Assembly: GCA_934487205.1 (NCBI GenBank) | Contig: CAKSRS010000002.1 | Location: forward strand, 29,116 to 93,115 | Length of the DNA: 64,000 bases | DNA from: an uncultured Clostridia bacterium | GTDB lineage: Bacteria; Bacillota; Clostridia; UBA1381 | Reading direction: 5' to 3' | Shown here: one piece after another, positions 4,778 to 30,520 of the stretch | Position numbering within the stretch: position 1 is the first letter of the stretch | How the letters are laid out: every line of letters starts with the position of its first letter | The notes under the pieces: model-generated | Seen by the model: only the letters and a program-made list of their open reading frames with translations | What the model was told of the DNA's origin: nothing | The model's database searches: none | Position numbers and translations under genes: made by a program

Positions 4778-5032
4778 TTGATTCAGGAGTATAGCATCAA
4801 GAGTGCAGAAGATATTCAAGAGGCATTAAAAGACCTGTTGGGTGGAACGATTCAAAAAATGATGGAAACTGAACTTGACGAACATTTGGGATATAGTGAA
4901 TATGAGCGCAGCGACAATCCCGATTACCGGAACGGCGTAAAAAAGAAGAAATTGCGCAGTTCATACGGCGAAATACCGATTGGTGTTCCGCAAGACCGTG
5001 ACGGTGATATTCAGCATTTAATTACATTTTAA
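4778..5032 (+). pseudogene. IS256-family transposase fragment (N-terminal about 80 aa only)
   Basis: LKDLLGGTIQKMMETELDEHLGYSEYERS..YRNGVKKKKLRSSYGEIPIGVPQDRDG is the conserved N-terminal region of IS256/mutator-type transposases. The ORF ends after 84 aa and no DDE domain follows. Confidence 0.7.
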
Positions 5033-6791: not shown

Positions 6792-6953
6792 ATGTATAAA
6801 CAAAAACTCGGATTTTCCATGTTTGGATCATATGAACACGGTATGTCAAGCGCCGTTAAGCTCATCAAAGACTGTAAGTTTGACGCGATCTCTCCCGTAT
6901 GGACAAATGATTACAACATAGAAGAAATTGCAAATGTACGAGTTACTTGGTAG
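6792..6953 (+). pseudogene. 5' stub (53 codons) of a gene truncated at the left boundary of repeat module copy A
   Basis: ATG 6792 with an AGAGGTG RBS. It reads MYKQKLGFSMFGSYEHGMSSAVKLIKDCKFDAISPVW.. and stops at the TAG formed inside GGTAGG, exactly where the repeat begins. Identity is uncertain (sugar-phosphate isomerase/TIM-barrel-like N-terminus). Confidence 0.4.
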
Positions 6954-6969
6954 GTGTAACACAATTTTT

Positions 6970-7057
6970 TTATACAAACCAAACAGGCTGCCCGATACGA
7001 GCAGCCTGTTTAGTCCACAAAAATTCCCATAGGTCTTTTTGAGATAATCAACAACAT
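6970..7057 (-). ncRNA. Candidate about 85-nt small RNA driven by P1 and ending at an intrinsic terminator (copy A)
   Basis: The perfect consensus promoter P1 lies 5-7 nt upstream. The transcript would end at hairpin 7011-6981 followed by UUUGGUUUGU. The sequence is identical in all three copies. Confidence 0.4.
6981..7011 (-). terminator. Intrinsic terminator hairpin of the P1 RNA (11-bp stem)
   Basis: AAACAGGCUGC/GCAGCCUGUUU stem followed by a U-rich tail on the minus strand. Copy B carries one substitution, which gives G.U on the minus-strand RNA but A-C on the plus strand. Confidence 0.6.
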
Positions 7058-7061
7058 TTTT

Positions 7062-7090
7062 ATTATACTACTATATGTTGTATTTGTCAA
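7062..7090 (-). promoter_or_regulatory. P1: perfect consensus sigma-A promoter (copy A)
   Basis: Minus strand TTGACA (7090-7085), 17-nt spacer, TATAAT (7067-7062). Conserved in copies B and C. Confidence 0.65.
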
Positions 7091-7197
7091 TAGTTTTTTA
7101 CAAATATATTTCATTATTTTCATTTTTGTTGCAACATAATTACTGCACGTTTGCACATGTGCGATTTGGGGCTTTTGTCTTTTTTCGTAAAAAGGCA

Positions 7198-7226
7198 TTG
7201 ACAAAACTGTAAAACAGGCGTATAAT
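7198..7226 (+). promoter_or_regulatory. P2: perfect consensus sigma-A promoter (copy A)
   Basis: TTGACA (7198-7203), 17-nt spacer, TATAAT (7221-7226). Both hexamers are conserved in copy B although the spacer carries 3 substitutions. Confidence 0.65.
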
Positions 7227-7232
7227 TACAAT

Positions 7233-7376
7233 AGAAAAAGGCAAAACCTCAAACGGTTATGCCAAGAAATCAGTTATTTATGCAATAACCGTCTTGCCAG
7301 AGGCGGTTATTGTGCGTTTATGGGAAATATTATCATTAAGATAATAAATACAAAAAGCGCTATGAGCAGCTTTTTC
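7233..7376 (+). ncRNA. Candidate about 145-nt structured RNA from P2, with an 18-nt hypervariable single-stranded segment (copy A)
   Basis: Hairpin HP1 is 7240-7263, the variable segment is 7265-7282, HP2 is 7283-7312, HP3 is 7328-7346, and a terminator-like hairpin plus U5 is at 7352-7375. Substitutions in HP1 and HP2 between copies are compensatory or wobble only for plus-strand RNA. Confidence 0.45.
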
Positions 7377-7520
7377 GCCATAAGTACAATGCTTACTTTT
7401 CATAAGCATACCCCCTTTCATAGACTCGGCATTTCTGCCTGTGAATATAAAAGTGTGGGCATAACCGCCGGTGTGAACACCGTTAAGAAATCTCGCCTTT
7501 AACATCGGATTACTCCGACA
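7350..7520 (-). ncRNA. Candidate about 170-nt structured RNA from P3 (copy A)
   Basis: Minus-strand hairpins carry GNRA loops. UCGGA-GUAA-UCCGA (7518-7505) has loop GCAA in copy B. GGCA-GAAA-UGCC is at 7439-7428. CGGUG-UUCA-CACCG is also present. It contains an AAAGGGGG Shine-Dalgarno 7 nt before AUG 7403. Confidence 0.4.
7352..7375. terminator. Candidate bidirectional terminator between the convergent P2 and P3 transcripts
   Basis: AAAAAGCGCUAUGAGCAGCUUUUU: an A-tract, a short GC hairpin and a U-tract. The same architecture reads on both strands. Confidence 0.35.
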
Positions 7521-7526
7521 AATCCT

Positions 7527-7555
7527 ATTATACACTATTATACGATGTTTTTCAA
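7527..7555 (-). promoter_or_regulatory. P3: near-consensus sigma-A promoter (copy A)
   Basis: Minus strand TTGAAA (7555-7550), 17-nt spacer, TATAAT (7532-7527). Conserved in copy B. Confidence 0.55.
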
Positions 7556-7633
7556 GAGATTTTGCAGAGAGCAATCAAATTGGTTGATAATGACTTATGC
7601 CCGCGGCGGACATTTTGACAGAATATGATAAAA

Positions 7634-8209
7634 TCACTTCGTTTCAATCAACAATTTTCTTGTCATTCCCGACCATGCTTTTGTAATTTCGTCGGTCAGA
7701 ATGGCATACTCAATACCTTTTTTAACACCTCTGTTATCCCATTCGTCCGTGAGTTCTTTTCGTACTTGAATAGCCTGCAAGCGTTGATTTATCCATTCTC
7801 TTGTATAGCCCTTTTTCAAATATGTCTCAAGAGCTCTGTCTATCGTAAGTTCCGGGTCTATCGTTTCGTCAATTCTCTCGGCACCGACTTGCGCAAGCCA
7901 TTGTTTGAACGGCTCGGCTTTGGGCGATGGAATTGACTGTATAATACGCAAAACGCCTTTTGTGTCCGACGCTTGAATTTTTCTTTTTTTTCCGTCGTGT
8001 GCAATCATTTCAACAGGGGTACAAATTGTACCCCACTTCAAATTCAGTTCAGGATCACGCTGACGCATTTTTTTGATATATTGTTTAACATCTTTGCTGT
8101 CGGTAAGTATTTCAACTATATCATAAATTGAAAAATACCATTCCTCGTGTTCGCTGTCCCACGCAGTACGGATTTTTTTATTTTCGAATATCTGTATATT
8201 ATTTTCCAT
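7634..8209 (-). CDS. Bro-N domain / DinD-like (DNA-damage-inducible protein D family) protein with a non-homologous 3' end
   Basis: 191 aa. Contains IRTAWDSEHEEWYFSIYDIVEILTDS (Bro-N) and KAEPFKQWLAQVG..ILTDEITKAWSGMT. Homology to the second dinD-like fragment (9030-9137) breaks at about 7672, just before module copy A. Confidence 0.7.
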   Translation of the reverse strand: MENNIQIFENKKIRTAWDSEHEEWYFSIYDIVEILTDSKDVKQYIKKMRQRDPELNLKWGTICTPVEMIAHDGKKRKIQASDTKGVLRIIQSIPSPKAEPFKQWLAQVGAERIDETIDPELTIDRALETYLKKGYTREWINQRLQAIQVRKELTDEWDNRGVKKGIEYAILTDEITKAWSGMTRKLLIETK

Positions 8210-9029: not shown

Positions 9030-9137
9030 ATATTATCGCGCAAGGTTTCTTTCGTCAACCCTTTTAACGCTTTATACTTGCGTGTTGTCAATTCCCGACC
9101 GTGCTTTTGTACCTTCATCGGTCAGGATAGCATAATT
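9030..9137 (-). pseudogene. DinD-like C-terminal fragment (frameshifted)
   Basis: The reverse strand reads NYAILTDEGTKARSG, then in a shifted frame ELTTRKYKALKGLTKETLRDNISN. This is homologous to YAILTDEITKAWSGMT of 7634..8209 and continues past where that gene breaks off. Confidence 0.5.
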
Positions 9138-9163
9138 TTACCATGCATTTTTGTATATGTCAA
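9135..9163 (-). promoter_or_regulatory. Outward-facing promoter at the R1 end (copy B)
   Basis: Minus strand TTGACA (9163-9158), 17-nt spacer ending in TGG, TAAAAT (9140-9135). It reads into the dinD fragment and the 185-aa gene. Confidence 0.5.
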
Positions 9164-9408
9164 TAAAATAAATGATTTTCGCCATAGGCGTCTATAATAC
9201 CTTGCAACAATTTAAAATGTTTCATCTTCTATAATATGCCGCAAGCTTAAAAAATCAATTTATGATTTTACACCTTTGTCACCCGTAAGGAAACGGTAGG
9301 TAGGACACAATTTTCTTATACAAACCAAACAAGCTGCCCGAATACGAGCAGCCTGTTTAGTCCACAAAAATTCCCATAGGTCTTTTTGAGATAATCAACA
9401 ACATTTTT

Positions 9409-9437
9409 ATTATACTACTATATGTTGTATTTGTCAA
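9409..9437 (-). promoter_or_regulatory. P1 (copy B)
   Basis: TTGACA (9437-9432), 17 nt, TATAAT (9414-9409) on the minus strand. Confidence 0.6.
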
Positions 9438-9544
9438 TGGTTTTTTACAAATATATTTCATTATTTTCATTTTTGTTGCAACGCGATTACTGCATGTTTG
9501 CATATGAGCGATTTGTGGCTTTTGTCCTTTTTCGCAAAAAGGCA

Positions 9545-9573
9545 TTGACAAAACTATGAAACGGGCGTATAAT
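9545..9573 (+). promoter_or_regulatory. P2 (copy B)
   Basis: TTGACA (9545-9550), 17 nt, TATAAT (9568-9573). Confidence 0.6.
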
Positions 9574-9579
9574 TATAAT

Positions 9580-9724
9580 AGAAAAGGGCAAGACCTCAAA
9601 CGGTTATGCCACAACGCAAACTATATTAACAATAGCTGCCTGTGCCAGAGGCGGCTATTGTGCGTTTATGGGAAATATTATCATTAAGATAATAAATACA
9701 AAAAGCGCTATGAGCAGCTTTTTC
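9580..9724 (+). ncRNA. Candidate P2 RNA (copy B), with a different 18-nt variable segment
   Basis: HP1 is 9587-9610, the variable segment is 9612-9629 (CAACGCAAACTATATTAA versus AGAAATCAGTTATTTATG in copy A), and HP2 is 9630-9660. The remainder is identical to copy A. Confidence 0.45.
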
Positions 9725-9868
9725 GCCATAAGTACAATGCTTACTTTTCATAAGCATACCCCCTTTCATAGACTCGGCATTTCTGCCTGTGAATATAAAA
9801 GTGTGGGCATAACCGCCGGTGTGAACACCGTTAAGAAATCTCGCCTTTAACATCGGATTGCTCCGACA
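9698..9868 (-). ncRNA. Candidate P3 RNA (copy B)
   Basis: Same structure as copy A. The first tetraloop is GCAA instead of GUAA, so both are GNRA. Confidence 0.4.
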
Positions 9869-9874
9869 AATCCT

Positions 9875-9903
9875 ATTATACACCATTATACAATGTTTTT
9901 CAA
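9875..9903 (-). promoter_or_regulatory. P3 (copy B)
   Basis: TTGAAA (9903-9898), 17 nt, TATAAT (9880-9875) on the minus strand. Confidence 0.55.
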
Positions 9904-9992
9904 GAGATTTTGCAGCGATCAATCAAATTTGTCGATAATGACTTATGCCCGCGGCGGACATTTTGACAGGATAGCATAATTGCACCCGTTTT

Positions 9993-10304
9993 TTATAATA
10001 GCCATTTATAGTCTTGTCTGCAATCCACAACATAATCGACATAAACTGTGTTATCTTTAATTTGATAAATTAACAAATACCTTTTTGCCGCAAGTTTTTT
10101 TCTATATTTATTTGCAGGAATCTCATCACAGTTAAGCCACGGATAACTTTCAGGCATAAACTCCAAAGCTCTTATTTCGGTAATAATATCCTTATGCAGC
10201 TTTTTAGCAGTTTCAGGTGAAACATTCGCCAAAAATCTGACATGATTTACAAGCATTGATACAGCCTTGTCAGAAACTATAACATTATACTTCTTATCCG
10301 ACAT
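9993..10304 (-). CDS. Type II toxin, RelE/ParE superfamily
   Basis: 103 aa. It overlaps the upstream antitoxin by 11 nt. KYRKKLAAKRYLLIYQIKDNTVYVDYVVDCRQDY is typical of the ParE/RelE fold. Confidence 0.8.
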   Translation of the reverse strand: MSDKKYNVIVSDKAVSMLVNHVRFLANVSPETAKKLHKDIITEIRALEFMPESYPWLNCDEIPANKYRKKLAAKRYLLIYQIKDNTVYVDYVVDCRQDYKWLL

Positions 10305-10572
10305 GACTCACCCCGGACGCTGCATCGCCAAGCATTTTGTCAAGTTCATCAACCGAATACCCTTTTTTGCCCATGAACCTTTCTTCCTCTGCGGCAATAA
10401 GTTCTTCTCTTAATTTAAGCATCTTTTCCCGTCTTGAAAAGCTTTCAATATCCATAACTACCAAATCGCCCTCGCCGTTTTTCGTAAGATACACGGGTTC
10501 CCCTGTTTCTTTGCAGTAGTTGGAAATGTCATTATAATTGTTTCTGATTGCTGCCGACGGTCTGATATTCAT
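10294..10572 (-). CDS. Type II antitoxin, Phd/YefM family
   Basis: The start is taken at ATG 10572 (GAGGAG RBS). MNIRPSAAIRNNYNDISNYCKETGEPVYLTKNGEGDLVVMDIESF is the Phd/YefM N-domain. Confidence 0.8.
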   Translation of the reverse strand: MNIRPSAAIRNNYNDISNYCKETGEPVYLTKNGEGDLVVMDIESFSRREKMLKLREELIAAEEERFMGKKGYSVDELDKMLGDAASGVSHVG

Positions 10573-10627
10573 AAAATCAACTCCTCGCATAAATATTATA
10601 TATTTATTATACATTTTTGTTACTATA

Positions 10628-10656
10628 ATTATACCATTCATATCCGTATATGTCAA
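10628..10656 (-). promoter_or_regulatory. Outward-facing R1 promoter driving phd-relE (copy C)
   Basis: Minus strand TTGACA (10656-10651), 17-nt spacer ending in TGG, TATAAT (10633-10628). Confidence 0.55.
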
Positions 10657-10902
10657 TAATATAGTTGATTTTCGTTACAAGCGTCTATAATACCTTGCGG
10701 CAATTTAAAATGTTTCATCTTCTATAATATGCCGCAAGCTTAAAAAATCAATTTATGATTTTACACCTTTGTCCCCCGTAAGGAAACGGTAGGTAGGGCA
10801 CAATTTTTCTTATACAAACCAAACAGGCTGCCCGAATACGAGCAGCCTGTTTAGTCCACAAAAATTCCCATAGGTCTTTTTGAGATAATCAACAACATTT
10901 TT

Positions 10903-10931
10903 ATTATACTACTATATGTTGTATTTGTCAA
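10903..10931 (-). promoter_or_regulatory. P1 (copy C)
   Basis: TTGACA (10931-10926), 17 nt, TATAAT (10908-10903). The downstream small-RNA sequence and the terminator hairpin at 10821-10852 are intact. Confidence 0.6.
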
Positions 10932-11020
10932 TGGTTTTTTACAAATATATTTCATTATTTTCATTTTTGTTGCAATATAATTACCACGTGTTTGCATTTG
11001 TGCAGTTTGTGGCTTTTGTC

Positions 11021-11181
11021 ATCAGCTCTGGACATCAAGGGGTGCGGACATATTCTTGGACAGTTTATACTGATAATCCAAGACTATGTCTGTACTCAAC
11101 CGGACTCATATATCCGAGGGACTGTTTTATTCGTTCTACATTATACCAATCAATGTATGTATTGATTTCTTTGTGTATTGC
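11021..11181 (-). mobile_element. IS3-family remnant: terminal repeat plus the last about 38 codons of the transposase
   Basis: The reverse strand reads ..AIHKEINTYIDWYNVERIKQSLGYMSPVEYRHSLGLSV*, the conserved IS3 integrase C-terminus. The end sequence is GATGTCCAGAGCTGAT. Confidence 0.65.
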
Positions 11182-11512: not shown

Positions 11513-12916
11513 TTACTGCATAACCTGCCAATAGCCCTTCTTATCCGAGCCTATACGGCAGATAATATTCTTCCTTTTGAGAGATTTTATCAATTCACCG
11601 ACGGTTTTTCGGCTTACATCTAATTTTCCGGATAAATCATCATATGTGTAAGCCGGATCTTCCAATAAGAGTGCAATGAGCCGATTTTCAGTTTCAGTCA
11701 CCTTTTCAGTCACCCTACCAGTCACCTTTTCAGTCACCCTACCAGTCACCTTTTCAGTCACCCTACCAGTCACCTTTTCAGTCACCCTATCGGCTGATGT
11801 ACGCACAATTCTATCCTCGGGTGCCGAAAACTTTATCATTATATCCTGCGGGTGAACCGTAAATTCCGGTTGAAAAACGCCATCATTTTTGCATACAGTA
11901 CAGATTTTTTCTATTCCGCGTCCCCAGCTTTCAATAAAGCCAGCAAGATAAAATACGTAAGCTATGTTGGGGTTGAACGGCTGTGATGCATGTTTCTCAA
12001 AAAGATTTTCAACTGTCCAGTTTTCCGGCAAATGACCACAATTTGCAATATACAGTTTATCATTGTAAACGCTTATTTGAATTGGAATCCCCCTTGAATA
12101 ATCCTTATGACAAAGAGCATTCAAAAGTGCTTCACGCAAAGCTTCTTCCGGAACAAAATACCGTTCAATGCGTTGCATACCGACATAGTATATCTTCGCT
12201 TTCATATATTTTAAATAAATAAGCTCAACTATTTTATCAATTTGATCCAATATAGAGCCGTGAATTTCATCTTGATATACAAGGTCTGCATCGGTTTCAA
12301 AAAAACCTATTTTTACATAAGCGCCCAACTGCCATTTTTCCGGATCATTACTGAAAAGCAGCATAGCCGCATTTGTTAAATACCCGTCCTTTACCAAGTG
12401 AAGTTTCTCAAGCATAACAAATTTATCTTCCGATAAAACCGATTTGTTTATTCGTCCTTTGTTAACTGCCCATTGCTTAAATCGCTTAACGACCCCATCG
12501 TCGACATCGTCTGCTGTAAACGTAGGCAATGGCATACTGTCCCAGGTGACTCCCCGCCGTCTCATAATAAAGGTTTCCAGTTCAGGACCGGATAGCTTTT
12601 GATTTGTGCTACCGCTTCTGTAATAGTATGAGCCTTTGCAGGAGATAGCAATAGGGTAAGGTGGCACGTCTATTTCAACGTACTCACAATTGCCGTCGGT
12701 AAGAGAATTTATGTTAACAATAATCCCCATTGCATCACGAATTTTGTTCGGAAGATCTTCAAGCAGTTTTTTCGCATTTTTCACCCCTACAACTTCGCCG
12801 GAATCATTCATACCAATATACAGTTTTCCCCCCTGTGCATTTGCAAATCCACATATCCATGCAAGATAATCGTCTTTCCAGACTTCTTTCCACTCAACAT
12901 TTTGTTTTTCACGCAT
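11513..12916 (-). CDS. AlbA_2 (Schlafen-like divergent AAA) plus HATPase_c_4-type putative transcriptional regulator with a C-terminal wHTH
   Basis: 467 aa. NVEWKEVWKDDYLAWICGFANAQGGKLYIG is an AlbA_2 N-domain. ALREALLNALCHKDYS is the ATPase-like domain. It contains the in-frame repeat (RVTEKVTG)x4. Confidence 0.7.
   Translation of the reverse strand: MREKQNVEWKEVWKDDYLAWICGFANAQGGKLYIGMNDSGEVVGVKNAKKLLEDLPNKIRDAMGIIVNINSLTDGNCEYVEIDVPPYPIAISCKGSYYYRSGSTNQKLSGPELETFIMRRRGVTWDSMPLPTFTADDVDDGVVKRFKQWAVNKGRINKSVLSEDKFVMLEKLHLVKDGYLTNAAMLLFSNDPEKWQLGAYVKIGFFETDADLVYQDEIHGSILDQIDKIVELIYLKYMKAKIYYVGMQRIERYFVPEEALREALLNALCHKDYSRGIPIQISVYNDKLYIANCGHLPENWTVENLFEKHASQPFNPNIAYVFYLAGFIESWGRGIEKICTVCKNDGVFQPEFTVHPQDIMIKFSAPEDRIVRTSADRVTEKVTGRVTEKVTGRVTEKVTGRVTEKVTETENRLIALLLEDPAYTYDDLSGKLDVSRKTVGELIKSLKRKNIICRIGSDKKGYWQVMQ
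11695..11790. repeat. Perfect 24-bp tandem repeat x4 inside the AlbA_2-type gene
   Basis: CAGTCACCTTTTCAGTCACCCTAC at 11695, 11719, 11743 and 11767 (the last unit ends in T). It encodes RVTEKVTG units. Confidence 0.9.
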
Positions 12917-29436: not shown

Positions 29437-29533
29437 AATTCTTCTCCGTTCTGCCGATAATTTAACCTTACACAGCTGCGACATTTTTATGAACATTTCC
29501 GACAAACACCGTCTGCACCGGGAATAGACGGCA

Positions 29534-29615
29534 CATTGCGCTTTTTGGTGCGGCGACGGCGTATATTCATACTCCGAGCCGTGAATACGCGTGAAATGCG
29601 ACGCATATCTTCCGC
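29534..29615. repeat. Diverged single copy of the about 111-bp intergenic repeat family
   Basis: GCGGCGACGGCGTATATTCATACTCCGAGCCGTGAATACGCGTGAAATGCG aligns with the units at 30301-30520. Confidence 0.6.
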
Positions 29616-29619
29616 ATTT

Positions 29620-30183
29620 TCAGTTGTTGTACTTGTTCATCGCACTATCTGTTCCGTGAGATATAATTTCTTCCACGGCTTTTGCGGCGCGGATAATCGA
29701 CTCCTCCAAAACAGGAATTTCCTCCTTGCCAAAACGCGCAAGCACAAAATCCGCCAAATCCATTTTTTCGCGCAGAGGTGAGTCAACACCTACGCGTATG
29801 CGCGGGAAATTGTCGGAATTAAGCTGATATATTATGGATTTTAACCCGTTGTGTCCGCCGGCGGAACCTTTGGCGCGTATGCGCAGTCTGCCCGCGGCAA
29901 GGTTTATGTCATCATTAATTACGATGATGTTTTCAACGGGAATTTTGTAAAACGCGGCAAATTCGCGTATACTCTCGCCAGATAAATTCATGAAGGTTGT
30001 CGGCTTTAGTAAAATTGCCTTTTCGCCGCCGATTACCGCGTCGGCATATAATCCCTTGAATTTCAGCTTTTTCACCTTTACATTATATTTATCCGCCATG
30101 TAATCTATGACCTCAAAGCCAATGTTATGGCGCGTCATTTCATATTGTCGTCCCGGATTGCCGAGACCTGCTATTAAATACAT
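29620..30183 (-). CDS. pth: Peptidyl-tRNA hydrolase
   Basis: 187 aa. MYLIAGLGNPG..Y..TRHN.GF and GGHNGLKS motifs. Confidence 0.95.
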   Translation of the reverse strand: MYLIAGLGNPGRQYEMTRHNIGFEVIDYMADKYNVKVKKLKFKGLYADAVIGGEKAILLKPTTFMNLSGESIREFAAFYKIPVENIIVINDDINLAAGRLRIRAKGSAGGHNGLKSIIYQLNSDNFPRIRVGVDSPLREKMDLADFVLARFGKEEIPVLEESIIRAAKAVEEIISHGTDSAMNKYNN

Positions 30184-30189
30184 TTTTCT

Positions 30190-30520
30190 CTCCGTTCCGC
30201 CGCGAAATCCGCGGTATAGTGATGTTTGCCGACCCGTAACGGCTCATGCCGGCACTCTAATTCGTGCGTATGCGTATAATACGCACGCACATTACGTCCA
30301 TTTTATTAGGGCACAACAAGAATCCAAGCAGTTTGCGCTTATGAGCGGCGACGGCGTACGTTGGTACTCCAAGTCATGAATATCCGTGAAACACACCGCA
30401 TATTGCGCCGCTTTTATTAGGACACGCAAGATGCAAGCAGTTTGCGCTTATGAGCGGCGACGGCGTACGTTGGTACTCCAAGTCGTGAATATGCGTAAAA
30501 TGCGCCGCATATTGCGCGTC
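30190..30520. repeat. Three tandem units (two clear about 111-bp units plus one degenerate) of a structured intergenic repeat
   Basis: Units 30301-30411 and 30412-30521 are near-identical, and 30190-30300 is a diverged third unit. Closing stems contain G.U pairs only in the minus-strand (gene-sense) RNA. Confidence 0.75.

Follow-up and report, generated by a model that had tools for sequence, protein, structure and literature searches.

Two convergent promoters in the genome of an uncultured Clostridia bacterium raise the question of which element they delimit and what the two resulting RNAs may do. The window (the whole stretch of DNA that was analyzed, 64,000 nucleotides) had been given a preliminary description, in which one region was read as resembling type I toxin-antitoxin loci. 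That reading holds for the convergent RNAs and for the pairing between 5' and 3' regions, both of which now have comparative evidence, but not for the lack of a toxin, the terminator shared by both RNAs and the likeness to par/Fst or hok/sok. From sequence comparisons, we predict with a probability of about 75% that the flagged region is the 5' half of a module of ~360 bp, which represents a new, uncatalogued, multicopy family of type I toxin-antitoxin-like elements.

Promoter P3 (7527..7555, minus strand) has a TTGAAA -35 box (7555-7550), a 17-nt spacer and a TATAAT -10 box (7532-7527), with 11/12 consensus matches and a start site expected at ~7520. Promoter P2 (7198..7226, plus strand) has the arrangement TTGACA-17-TATAAT, with 12/12 consensus matches and an expected start at ~7233. 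These near-consensus sequences agree with the earlier proposal that P3 fires toward P2. Among 112 distinct modules, 89 have a P3-type promoter fewer than 60 nt ahead of the leader, and 110 have P2 at the same position. Both are sigma-A-type promoters, which converge and bound the module. P3 is predicted to drive a toxin mRNA of ~287 nt (7234..7520, minus strand), consisting of a leader, a 24-codon ORF and a 3' UTR. Its 5' end is derived from the promoter and its 3' end from a terminal hairpin with a U-tract. The fold of this mRNA has a minimum free energy (MFE) of -103.7 kcal/mol (z = -7.0).

P3 and P2 mark the exact limits of the conserved unit. Only 7173-7603 and 9520-9951 of the window are homologous to the ~150-155 other loci; the flanks are unrelated, and conservation ends just outside P3 and just outside P2. 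The loci are from gut and rumen Clostridia (Lachnospiraceae, Ruminococcus, Acutalibacteraceae). The two matching regions correspond to two copies of the module, copy A (7198-7555) and copy B (9545-9903), the latter being a complete second module according to sequence comparison with copy A. It comprises a P2 promoter (9545-9573, with the P2 RNA predicted to start at ~9580), the 3' element (9587-9610), the terminator hairpin H8 (9630-9660), a toxin ORF (9729->9655, minus strand) with a peptide identical to that of copy A and a TAG stop, the leader hairpins (9776-9867) and a P3 promoter (9903->9875, minus strand). A repeat of ~670 nt within the window was rejected as the functional unit, since its P1 part (6955-7197) is absent from all other loci.

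The preliminary description had placed three hairpins on the minus-strand RNA, and their conserved pairing and strand bias support this. H1, the first of these, is the 5'-terminal hairpin GUCGGA-GUAA-UCCGAU (7504..7519). H2 (CGGUG-UUCA-CACCG, 7469..7482) lies between two long-range segments in a three-way junction, and H3 (GGCA-GAAA-UGCC, 7428..7439) lies inside the loop closed by pairing of the Shine-Dalgarno (SD) region. In 28 related sequences, H1 is 92.9% paired, H2 98.6% and H3 100%. Changes on both sides affect three of six pairs in H1, at least one pair in H2 and two of four in H3. The stem of H1 occurs in many variants across 95 modules, and H2 covaries across subfamilies (CGGUG/CACCG, CAGU/GCUG, CGGC/GCCG, CGAU/AUCG). 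Taken over all local hairpins, pairing in the 28 sequences is 87% versus 37-52% when the partners are slid, and 12 pairs are changed on both sides, a number reached by none of 500 shuffles. In the minus-strand sense, G-U pairs outnumber A-C pairs by 24 to 0 in H1, 1 to 0 in H2 and 7 to 0 in H3. Because G-U pairs arise in the minus-strand sense alone, the leader hairpins are assigned to the minus-strand RNA. The reported change of the first loop from GUAA to GCAA is also real (copy A has GUAA, copy B GCAA). GNRA loops are, however, not a conserved feature: an automatic search found them in only 29 of 95 first-hairpin loops, with ~10 further GUAA loops mis-called, and the other loops include UACU, AUUA and GAU. 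They were therefore rejected as a module-defining feature.

The 5' UTR also pairs with the far end of the predicted mRNA. Segment 1, GGCGAGAUUUC (7487..7497, minus strand), pairs with 7250-7240, and segment 2, GCGGUUAUGCC (7458..7468, minus strand), pairs with 7263-7253. The latter is the complementarity that had been noticed before, with coordinates off by one. The resulting 11+11-bp closure is obtained from single-sequence MFE folding (z = -7.0) as well as from RNAalifold. Its 18 core pairs are 99.2% paired in 28 sequences versus 25-44% with slid partners. Full complementarity of the 8-nt core of segment 1 is seen in 96/112 modules versus 2/112 shuffled, and that of the 10-nt core of segment 2 in 94/112 versus 0/112. 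Segments 1 and 2 are part of the MFE structure in 91 and 77 of 95 modules, respectively. Five compensatory events were found, one in segment 1 (locus L021, with L012 having a G-U intermediate) and the others in segment 2 (L013, L027, L105 and L066); locus L123 is a counterexample, in which the long-range pairing is broken without compensation. All 28 one-sided changes in the 5' arm lead to G-U in the mRNA sense, and none to A-C.

A covarying inverted repeat (7458-7497 versus 7240-7263) in a short multicopy unit that has unrelated flanks and often breaks assemblies may also be expected from a non-coding repeat or a miniature mobile element. The inverted repeat would then be a DNA site for recombination or protein binding, and the hairpins would be by-products. 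We consider this very improbable. The inverted repeat is internal, with conservation running ~40 nt past one arm to P2 and ~60 nt past the other to P3, and neither target-site duplications nor terminal repeats are seen at the unit boundaries. The G-U-only changes in the mRNA sense are an asymmetry expected of RNA, not of DNA. In addition, the unit clearly bears the signature of a coding sequence, including a stop that keeps its place (see below).

The 3' partner of both segments is a 24-nt element, GGCAUAACCGUUUGAGGUUUUGCC (7263-7240), followed by a U-tract (7239-7234), the two spanning 7234..7263 and having a predicted role on both strands. The element is near-invariant across ~150 loci, most of which were gathered with exact-match anchors, so that anchor invariance is partly built in. 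On the mRNA, it is predicted to be the terminator hairpin as well as the 3' partner of the long-range closure, and on the plus strand to be the 5' hairpin of the P2 RNA. As a hairpin, it fits better in the P2 sense (0 G-U versus 26 A-C pairs). The U-tract follows it in 102/112 modules. The P3 mRNA is thus predicted to terminate at 7263-7234, right at the start of P2 transcription; with this end, the two RNAs would overlap by at least 88 nt and have no common terminator.

Between leader and 3' element, a short ORF encodes MAKKLLIALFVFIILMIIFPINAQ (24 codons plus TAA, 7307..7381, minus strand). The earlier statement that none of the peptides is typically hydrophobic was wrong, as this 24-aa peptide is hydrophobic (GRAVY 1.98) and predicted to form a single transmembrane-type helix. 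All 26 distinct homologous ORFs have 24 codons and the same stop position, even though the stop codon differs (TAG 14, TAA 9, TGA 3). The synonymous fraction in this frame is 0.54 versus 0.11-0.13 in the other sense frames; for the part downstream of the hairpin at 7352-7375, it is 0.44 versus 0.08-0.11. Entropy at the three codon positions is 0.57/0.28/0.85, and indels inside the ORF region are of 3 and 12 nt. By this substitution pattern, the ORF is coding. Other subfamilies have the same UTRs but different hydrophobic peptides of 20-28 aa, which directly follow a canonical SD (e.g., MKKYILRVIVLTIVFLFVLTIKVR, MEYVYIMMYLLALITLVLAIKK and MDNEFIISFMIILLLLVVSIKK).

The toxin frame is +1 relative to a long minus-strand ORF (98 aa, 7574->7278), which, or the SD-proximal version of which (MKSKHCTYGEK..., 41-43 codons), might be taken for the real gene. 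The long ORF is open in all members, gene finders call it in 43 database entries ("homologues"), and its inner AUG is 7 nt past the SD. Yet the absence of stops is what is expected for the +2 frame of a U-rich hydrophobic ORF, the upstream part is frame-shifted among homologues despite nucleotide conservation, and the C-terminus and stop position vary freely. With a synonymous fraction of 0.11 within the toxin region and these frame-shifts, the 98-aa ORF was rejected as a gene, and we give this assignment hardly any weight, the least of all those considered. A 60-aa plus-strand ORF (7320-7502) was also rejected: it has no SD, it is interrupted by stops in some members, and wobble positions shared with the toxin frame explain its synonymous fraction of 0.41.

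The SD region upstream of the toxin ORF, UAUGAAAGGGGG (7411..7422, minus strand), is the most conserved stretch in the protein-level alignment of spurious ORF calls as well as in DNA alignments. It can pair (7422-7411) with an anti-SD stretch, CCCACACUUUUAUA (7446..7459, minus strand). This helix is 90% paired in 28 related sequences and is also found in the MFE structure and by RNAalifold; the partner sequences vary by subfamily, with complementarity being kept. The SD is paired in the MFE of 52/84 modules, and the longest anti-SD helix has 7.8 bp versus 6.8 bp in shuffled sequences. Sequestration of the SD by the anti-SD stretch is thus predicted with moderate support.

Between SD and toxin AUG, an 8-bp hairpin is found (H5, AUGCUUAU-GAAAA-GUAAGCAU, 7389..7409, minus strand). 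It is 99.6% paired, with changes only between A-U and G-U, G-C and G-U, or U-G and U-A (32 G-U versus 0 A-C pairs). In the subfamily of the window, 29 nt separate the SD and the toxin AUG, and an out-of-frame AUG is at ideal spacing. Efficient translation of the toxin would therefore depend on a hairpin bridge, which we infer to be H5: it would hide two out-of-frame AUGs and reduce the effective SD-AUG spacing from 29 nt to ~8 nt. According to these models, the toxin mRNA appears to be built for stability but poor translation. Of the structures predicted to restrain translation, the long-range closure is strongly supported and SD occlusion moderately.

The A-tract/hairpin/U-tract at 7352-7375 (H6), which had been proposed as a bidirectional terminator, does exist, but it can hardly be a shared end point. 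H6 corresponds to codons 3-10 (KKLLIALF) of the 24-codon toxin ORF. Since it lies inside the ORF, the toxin transcript cannot end there. Also, the 5' UTR covaries with a segment ~100 nt beyond H6, so that one RNA must span both. The earlier proposal was a locus of the par/Fst kind, with this terminator shared by both RNAs and no typical toxin peptide. It is compatible with the conservation of the hairpin and its flanking tracts (core pairs are conserved, three pairs are changed on both sides and a 12-nt in-frame insertion lengthens the hairpin), with the window itself, in which the tract past the hairpin is U-rich in both directions, and with the G-U pairs, which slightly favor the P3 (mRNA) sense (17 versus 5). 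Against it stand the coding signal and the conserved stop, which continue downstream of the hairpin, the 28-aa variants, in which the sequence past the hairpin is not U-rich in the P3 direction, a far stronger P2 terminator upstream (7283-7312), and the lack of an Fst match in Pfam and an RNAII match in Rfam. We therefore regard a shared terminator as improbable. A U-tract is present in all members only in the P2 direction, where it is the antisense of the Lys-Lys codons, so that H6 could at most serve the antisense RNA as a second terminator, downstream of the main one. This is probably its function, besides a structural one in the mRNA; P3 transcripts may also be partly terminated or attenuated there.

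The main terminator of the P2 RNA is predicted to be H8, a 13-bp stem (7283-7312) followed by the U-tract UGCGUUUAU (together 7283..7321, plus strand), which overlaps the toxin stop codon. This assignment is strand-specific: in 108/112 modules, H8 folds more stably in the P2 sense (mean -17.6 versus -13.4 kcal/mol), and a U-rich tract follows in 110/112. Compensatory changes are present (GC:13/AU:10), and a promoter/terminator scan of the window also flagged part of H8 as terminator-like. The P2 antisense RNA, the candidate antitoxin (7233..7380, plus strand), would thus have a short form of 88 nt (~7233-7321) and possibly a long form to ~7380. The notion that it always runs to 7380 was dropped in view of the strand-specific terminator at 7283-7312. 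The short form is fully complementary to the last part of the ORF and to the 3' UTR of the mRNA, and the long form to the whole ORF. The folds have -30.5 kcal/mol for a 90-nt form and -45.1 kcal/mol (z = -5.2) for a 148-nt form. Between 5' hairpin and H8, a linker (7264..7282, plus strand) is single-stranded in the fold of the 90-nt isoform, but can alternatively pair with the mRNA at the 3' arm of H8. The linker varies more between the two copies than any other part of the module and is a candidate for the specificity or seed region. Linker and H8 stem account for the main differences between the copies, those in the stem being compensatory.

Several known type I systems resemble the module in part. 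In the Gram-positive 3'-overlap layout, the antisense RNA covers the last part of the ORF together with the 3' UTR (PMC8594479). The convergent arrangement predicted here is of this type, as in bsrG/SR4 and txpA/RatA of Bacillus subtilis and in the systems of Clostridioides difficile (e.g., CD2517.1/RCd8). These also have a small hydrophobic toxin peptide, and like the module, they reside in prophage or mobile regions with several paralogous copies (PMC6563280). The Gram-positive type I toxins listed in a review have 28-60 aa (PMC6563280), while those of the module have 20-28 aa and are devoid of a long charged tail. No similarity of toxin or antitoxin to TxpA/RatA, BsrG/SR4 or C. difficile RCd was found in Rfam, Pfam or NCBIfam. 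A further difference is that the 5' hairpin of the module's antitoxin repeats sequence of the mRNA 5' UTR. We know of no covarying 5'-3' closure of the mRNA, as is present in the module, in Gram-positive 3'-overlap systems.

Such a closure, together with a sequestered SD and a small membrane peptide, is typical of hok/sok (plasmid R1) and aapA1/IsoA1 (Helicobacter pylori); the fbi/tac pairing of hok and the long-distance interaction of aapA1 are in part described in PMC5416894, PMC6733600 and PMC9841398. The module has the 5'-3' long-distance pairing of this class. In hok/sok and aapA1/IsoA1, however, the antisense RNA is directed against the 5' part of the mRNA, which is activated by 3' trimming, whereas that of the module would cover the 3' end. 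Its promoter is at the 3' end of the mRNA and not in the leader, unlike Sok, which acts against the mok/hok leader. An overlapping, mok-like frame close to the SD (MKSKH...) stays open in every member, with a synonymous fraction of only 0.11 and no sign of coding constraint. The hosts differ as well (Proteobacteria and Campylobacterota versus Clostridia), and seven representative peptides gave no Hok_Gef match in Pfam (E<=10). The likeness to end-locked hok/aapA mRNAs is best described as an analogy in mechanism and not as homology.

The par locus (RNA I/RNA II-Fst of Enterococcus faecalis pAD1) shares with the module a Gram-positive host, convergent RNAs, and a toxin mRNA with a 5' stem-loop and SD sequestration. 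A YUNR motif in a terminal loop of par could start the RNA-RNA contact, and a loop of the module also carries YUNR. While par has one bidirectional terminator downstream of the ORF, each RNA of the module would have its terminator inside the region transcribed into the other. The par RNAs pair via direct repeats at their 5' ends, and the module has no complementary direct repeats; the motif CGGUUAUGCC in the 5' parts of both its RNAs is identical and not complementary. The Fst family has no Pfam match among the seven peptides (E<=10), and RNAII/Fst-antitoxin has no Rfam match at gathering threshold or E<=10. Given these searches and the lack of complementary direct repeats, the module belongs to neither the par/Fst nor the hok/sok family. 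As for ibs/sib of Escherichia coli, the hydrophobic toxins have only 18-19 aa and are thus similarly short. The ibs/sib loci are tandem and multicopy, as is the module, with small sequence differences setting the cognate pairing. Their antisense RNA can extend across the entire ORF (PMC8594479), which resembles the possible long P2 isoform. Unlike in the module, Sib is wholly within the ibs transcript and the hosts are Gram-negative, and a Pfam scan found no sequence relationship to the module's peptides. To our knowledge, ibs has no 5'-3' closure. The best reading of the family is the Gram-positive 3'-overlap layout combined with a hok/aapA1-like pairing of the mRNA ends.

Taken together, the module shows traits of type I systems in silico: a small (<60 aa) hydrophobic peptide, predicted to be of membrane type, on a short mRNA; a cis-antisense RNA with its own promoter and terminator; and an mRNA structure (predicted closure and SD occlusion) that would limit toxin translation. 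The same architecture would also be found if the gene encoded a non-toxic small membrane protein (e.g., a modulator of a membrane complex), with the antisense RNA being an ordinary cis-regulator. Toxicity is what we infer for the peptides, and they are devoid of the charged C-terminal tail that is common in Gram-positive type I toxins. We nevertheless consider a non-toxic protein unlikely. Genomes have several copies, with tandem arrays carrying different toxins at six loci (L019, L036, L066, L076, L128, L142). Many copies are at contig ends, and predicted viral contigs (IMG/VR) have 6 matches to the 3' element. In the window, the module is part of an island of low GC content that also carries ParE/Phd, Bro-N, RepA_N and an integrase. 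Genomic contexts are unrelated, and there is no conserved partner gene. Orphan copies with only the antisense part (e.g., L023, L051, L071) are the pattern expected after toxin loss. A multicopy, tandem distribution on mobile islands is typical of type I toxin-antitoxin loci, and layered translational silencing with a perfect-consensus antisense promoter is a hallmark of toxic genes.

A type I toxin-antitoxin-like family of this kind seems to be absent from current catalogs. At gathering threshold, Rfam yielded nothing relevant for 14 related loci or for the whole window, where only tRNA, 5S rRNA and pemK RNA were found elsewhere; at E<=10, the region 6900-7700 also gave nothing relevant. Pfam (E<=10) and NCBIfam scans of seven representative toxin peptides gave nothing meaningful, and literature searches did not find the family described. 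The 676-nt window repeat has 0 matches (blastn) in phage and plasmid collections, and the exact leader pattern has 0 matches in IMG/VR.

A mechanism can be proposed as follows. P3 would transcribe the ~287-nt minus-strand mRNA (7520->7234) for the membrane peptide, with translation restrained by the 5'-end hairpin, SD/anti-SD pairing, the hairpin between SD and AUG, and the 11+11-bp closure of the 5' UTR with the last 24 nt. P2 would transcribe the ~88-nt plus-strand RNA with its 5' hairpin, variable linker and strong terminator hairpin, and some read-through may reach the hairpin at 7352-7375. By analogy to bsrG/SR4, txpA/RatA and the C. difficile systems, the P2 RNA would pair with the 3' region of the mRNA. 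Pairing may start at complementary terminal loops (UCAAAC/GUUUGA, of which GUUUGA holds the YUNR motif) or at the linker. It would trigger RNase III-type decay, and the toxin would stay unexpressed. Upon loss of the P2 RNA, the peptide would be made and would damage the membrane, which would stabilize the mobile island that bears both copies.

It is tempting to speculate further that the 3' element is part of a three-partner RNA switch, an idea that we consider tentative. The 3' element would pair with itself (as the terminator hairpin), with the 5' UTR of the mRNA (an end-locked, inert state) or with the antitoxin. Because the 5' hairpin of the antitoxin is a sequence copy of the mRNA 5' UTR, the antitoxin would compete with the 5' UTR for the 3' element. 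By outcompeting it, the antitoxin would release the two ends from each other and leave the mRNA open to decay. The conserved UTR chassis would have served, in several Clostridia families, for at least five short toxin ORFs that are unrelated to each other, and the hairpin that bridges a distant SD to the start would also be needed for translation in one subfamily.

Type I toxin-antitoxin systems easily escape detection, as their two genes are very small and little conserved, and the known families have a narrow range of hosts. For Clostridia, a review focuses on C. difficile (PMC6563280). The module family is abundant in uncultured gut and rumen Clostridia, but annotation pipelines overlook it and call a spurious ORF of 75-98 aa across it. 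The near-invariant 24-nt element is an easy handle for its detection. The module explains contig breaks in gut metagenome assemblies and marks mobile islands. With predicted membrane-active peptides that are very short and with compact RNA control parts, it may offer useful components. The five toxin types, which share an RNA scaffold that shows compensatory changes, are natural variants for studying how a toxin mRNA is locked and unlocked, in a module that would unite the end-locking principle of hok and aapA1 with the Gram-positive 3'-antisense layout.

The window contains a repeat of ~670 nt that looks non-coding. Two full copies (6955-7625 and ~9300-9972) are 94-97% identical, and a third, partial copy is found at 10800-11040. 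Each full copy has three near-consensus sigma-70-type promoters (P1, P2 and P3). P2 (7198-7226, plus strand, 12/12 consensus matches) and P3 (7555->7527, minus strand, 11/12 consensus matches) are convergent, which confirms the preliminary description, where P3 was said to fire toward P2. The repeat region has no match in Rfam, either at the gathering threshold or at E<=10, and phage and plasmid collections gave no match to the repeat.

Relatives were retrieved by searching a protein database with a 98-aa ORF, the longest on the minus strand. This returned 43 "proteins" of ~65-160 aa, and the only strongly conserved stretch in their alignment (...AESMKGGMLMKSKH...) represents a Shine-Dalgarno (SD) sequence and AUGs. 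Upstream of it, the entries are frame-shifted despite conserved DNA, and their C-termini vary freely. The 98-aa ORF was therefore rejected as a gene and is considered a gene-caller artefact over a conserved RNA. On the contigs of two entries, the element is found in unrelated contexts (the pyrG/ispG interval, and beside an ABC transporter and resolvase fragments). The DNA alignment is conserved from the -35 box of P3 to that of P2, with nothing in common beyond. Further loci were gathered by pattern scans with exact-match anchors: 24 from Clostridia MAGs (one genome per species; Lachnospiraceae, Ruminococcus, Acutalibacteraceae and unclassified Clostridia), 118 from metagenomes and 6 from predicted viral contigs. 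There are at most four loci per MAG, and for one-third of the MAG loci the contig ends no more than a few hundred bases away. When window positions 1-24000 were compared by megablast with all collected loci, only 7173-7603 and 9520-9951 matched, and the P1 part of the repeat was not found in the ~155 other loci (L001-L155) or in IMG/VR. Judged by conservation, the functional unit is thus the P3-P2 pair of ~360 bp.

Most loci found via the 3' element have a canonical SD sequence (GGAGGUGG), followed at once by a short, very hydrophobic ORF (e.g., MKKYILRVIVLTIVFLFVLTIKVR, MEYVYIMMYLLALITLVLAIKK, MDNEFIISFMIILLLLVVSIKK and (V)NFYELLMYLITLIVLIIITKK). In the subfamily to which the window belongs, the peptide is MAKKLLIALFVFIILMIIFPINAQ, encoded on the minus strand (7381->7307 in copy A, 9729->9655 in copy B) in frame +1 relative to the 98-aa ORF. 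Coding tests were made on 26 distinct versions of this 75-nt ORF. All have 24 codons, and the stop is at one fixed place (TAG in 14, TAA in 9 and TGA in 3). Entropy at the three codon positions is 0.57/0.28/0.85, and indels in the ORF region are of 3 and 12 nt. Single-nucleotide codon differences are synonymous in 54% of cases in the toxin frame vs 11-13% in the other two sense frames; the value is 41% for the antisense frame that shares the wobble positions, which has internal stops and no SD sequence. GRAVY values are 1.6-2.0 for all peptide types, and none of the peptides is recognized by Pfam or NCBIfam. The in silico evidence thus identifies the 24-codon hydrophobic ORF as coding, whereas the preliminary description had seen no peptide resembling a typical hydrophobic type I toxin.

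The P3 RNA (the predicted toxin mRNA) contains a series of local hairpins, and 28 distinct subfamily members were aligned to evaluate them. Pairing in these hairpins amounts to 87.2%, vs 37-52% after sliding of the 3' partners. Twelve of their pairs are changed on both sides, a count reached by 0 of 500 shuffles, which do not correct for relatedness. The three minus-strand hairpins described earlier are all present: H1 (7519-7504; 92.9% paired, 3/6 pairs changed on both sides), H2 (7482-7469; 98.6%, 1/5) and H3 (7439-7428; 100%, 2/4). A further conserved minus-strand hairpin of 8 bp, H5 (7409-7389; 99.6% paired), is located between the SD sequence (7422-7411) and the toxin AUG. H1, H3 and H5 are attributed to the P3 RNA because their G-U pairs (24, 7 and 32, respectively, vs 0 A-C) are confined to the minus-strand sense. 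Across 95 modules from all subfamilies, H1 and H2 hold their position with many different stem sequences. GNRA tetraloops had been proposed as a feature of this RNA. The H1 loop is, however, GNRA in just 29 of 95 automatically called hairpins (about 10 more have a mis-called GUAA), so that the conserved feature in these alignments is the H1 hairpin itself and not a GNRA loop.

The SD-to-AUG arrangement of the window subfamily is unusual, and its function can be proposed only by inference. If formed, H5 would cut the SD-AUG distance from 29 nt to ~8 nt; two out-of-frame AUGs are buried in it. The SD region pairs with 7459-7446, immediately 3' of the GGUUAUGCC motif. The partners vary by subfamily yet stay complementary (CCACCUC/GAGGUGG, AUCAUCU/AGGUGAU and CUUUUAUA/UAUGAAAG), and the SD sequence is paired in the minimum free energy (MFE) structure of 52 of 84 modules. 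This gives moderate support to a predicted sequestration of the SD sequence by the upstream stretch.

The complementarity reported between 7253-7263 and 7458-7468 is real and proved to be half of a larger 5'-3' closure. In the minus-strand transcript, 7497-7487 (GGCGAGAUUUC) pairs with 7250-7240 (GAGGUUUUGCC), and 7468-7458 (GCGGUUAUGCC) pairs with 7263-7253 (GGCAUAACCGU), with H2 placed between the two 5' segments. The predicted 287-nt transcript has an MFE of -103.7 kcal/mol (z = -7.0), closure included, and RNAalifold predicts the closure independently of the single-sequence MFE. The 18 core pairs are 99.2% paired in 28 sequences (25-44% when slid), and each of the 28 changes that affect one side alone produces a G-U pair in the sense of the mRNA. 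Full complementarity is found for a 10-nt core in 94 and for an 8-nt core in 96 of 112 distinct modules, compared to 0 and 2 in shuffled controls; the two helices are within the MFE structure of 77/95 and 91/95 modules. Many loci were picked by an exact 3'-element pattern, and variant 3' elements were therefore inspected specifically. Compensatory changes were found in L013 and L027 (A-U to G-C) and in L066 (C-G to U-A), with several coordinated changes in L105. In the other closure helix, L021 has A-U to G-C, and L012 is a G-U intermediate. L123, with a change lacking compensation, is a counterexample. The changes in L105 and L027 make the local hairpin in the antisense RNA less stable while 5'-3' pairing is kept, and selection thus seems to act on the long-range pairing. 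Such selection is possible only if a minus-strand transcript extends as far as 7240.

The 3' partner is part of a 24-nt element (7263-7240), which has a U-tract after it in 102 of 112 modules. This element is predicted to form the mRNA terminator hairpin and, in the opposite strand, the 5' hairpin of the P2 RNA, the two roles being assigned because its end coincides with the inferred P2 start site. It makes the better hairpin in the P2 sense (0 G-U vs 26 A-C pairs). The strongest P2-sense terminator candidate in most modules is H8 (7283-7312), a long GC-rich hairpin just past the toxin stop codon. In 108 of 112 modules, its stability is greater in the P2 sense (mean -17.6 vs -13.4 kcal/mol), and in 110 of 112 it is followed by a U-rich tract that is antisense to the conserved C-terminal Ile-Lys codons. 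With this terminator, the basic P2 RNA is predicted to have ~88 nt, consisting of the 5' hairpin, a single-stranded linker of ~18 nt and the terminator. The linker is the most divergent segment between the two copies in the window. In the mRNA, the 3' arm of H8 could pair alternatively with this variable linker downstream (7264-7312 and homologous alignment positions; GGUUAUU/AAUAAC, GCUAUU/AAUAGU and GGUCAU/AUGAUU). Stems average 5.6 bp vs 4.2 bp when shuffled, with apparent covariation; this pairing may function as a structural switch, or it may determine how the cognate antitoxin is recognized.

The U-tract after H8 is a weaker variant in the window (UGCGUUUAU), which makes P2 read-through plausible. 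Downstream is H6 (7352-7375), a hairpin that does exist but is limited to the window's subfamily. It had been proposed as the common end of both RNAs, and this does not hold for the mRNA: the coding signal of the ORF persists beyond it (44% synonymous in the toxin frame vs 8-11%). A U-run in the P2 direction, antisense to Lys-Lys codons, is present in every member, whereas a U-rich tract in the P3 direction is found in only some. A 12-nt in-frame insertion in 28-aa variants leads to a longer H6. We thus read H6 as a probable second terminator of the P2 RNA, downstream of H8; the resulting long isoform would have ~147 nt and span the whole ORF. G-U pairs lean slightly to the P3 sense (17 vs 5), and H6 may also have a role in the mRNA.

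In six loci (L019, L036, L066, L076, L128 and L142), two or three modules are arranged in tandem over a few kb, often with different toxin types on one UTR scaffold (e.g., MTKKLL... beside MKKYILRV...). Eight others (L023, L051, L065, L071, L085, L094, L136 and L144) retain the P2 promoter together with the 24-nt element and are missing a recognizable leader, an intact toxin ORF or both; they resemble decayed modules or remnants of orphan antitoxins. Two module-carrying contigs have a pemK RNA motif (Rfam RF02913, a type II toxin gene leader; L034 12634-12692, L037 892-950).

The repeats are located in a low-GC island (30-40% GC vs ~48% in the remaining window), close to a RepA_N/DUF6017 protein and an integrase fragment. 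Small cargo operons separate them, one coding for a Bro-N and an unknown protein, the other for ParE and Phd. A metagenome scaffold of 43.8 kb (L156) carries the same island, and the same Bro-N gene is also found on other contigs, including some from the Hadza human gut. The P1 unit (minus strand; 6965-7090, 9312-9437 and 10806-10931) is almost identical in its three window copies. Its promoter (7090->7062, TTGACA-17-TATAAT) is a perfect consensus, and the predicted transcript of ~90 nt (-35.4 kcal/mol, z = -6.9) ends in a very strong hairpin terminator (6980-7015). It contains a 15-codon ORF (MLLIISKRPMGIFVD), which starts ~5 nt past the -10 box. Directly downstream (minus sense) of the P1 terminator is a 183-nt direct repeat (9132-9314 and 10625-10807, 91% identical) that supplies the cargo-operon promoters (TTGACA-17-TAAAAT, 9163->9135; TTGACA-17-TATAAT, 10656->10628). 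The island seems to be built of tandem cassettes, each with a toxin-antitoxin module, P1 RNA, promoter and cargo. The Phd/YefM antitoxin (10294-10656) and ParE toxin (9993-10304) form a type II pair between two of the repeat copies (minus strand, 9993-10656), so that the island has type I-like plus type II addiction modules. A 467-aa protein with Schlafen/AlbA_2, HATPase_c_4 and winged-helix domains (11513-12916, minus strand) is encoded in place of the right-hand part of the truncated third copy; this may be a defence or regulator gene inserted in a former module. An 84-aa ORF (4778-5032) close to the island's left edge is a transposase fragment, with a match limited to the N-terminal part of a Transposase_mut family protein annotated in the syntenic L156. 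An 87-nt direct repeat (three copies within 29527-30517, 64-92% identical, spacing 795 and 109 nt) is found where the window is higher in GC.

In layout, the module corresponds to the 3'-overlap type I systems of Gram-positive bacteria. The end-locking of its mRNA resembles hok and aapA1, and its very short toxins and tandem paralogs resemble ibs/sib. Sequence-based tests (Rfam, Pfam and NCBIfam) all failed to assign it to par/Fst, hok/sok, TxpA/RatA or BsrG/SR4, and par is also excluded by architecture. The T1TAdb publication reports 24 type I families (PMC8594479), and the review on Clostridia is confined to C. difficile systems, whose toxins have 34-59 aa (PMC6563280). A literature search of incomplete coverage returned no description of the P3-P2 module family. 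We thus classify it as a new predicted type I toxin-antitoxin (super)family, with at least five peptide types on one conserved UTR scaffold.

In silico, the module is discrete, with two fixed convergent promoters, a highly structured mRNA predicted to have locked ends, and a short antisense RNA that has its own strand-specific terminator and is complementary to the 3' UTR and ORF end of the mRNA. The ends of all transcripts, the toxicity of the peptide and the way in which the antitoxin acts are predicted. If the module works like bsrG/SR4, txpA/RatA and the systems of C. difficile (PMC6563280, PMC8594479), with an end-locking like that of hok and aapA1, the toxin mRNA would be stable and translationally inert. 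The P2 RNA would be produced constitutively, bind the 3' region of the mRNA and set off its decay. Upon loss of the module or lower P2 transcription, the peptide would be made and would damage the membrane. Phage defence is one candidate role. Stabilization of the mobile island is another and would be the most economical, because the two copies flank cargo operons within it.
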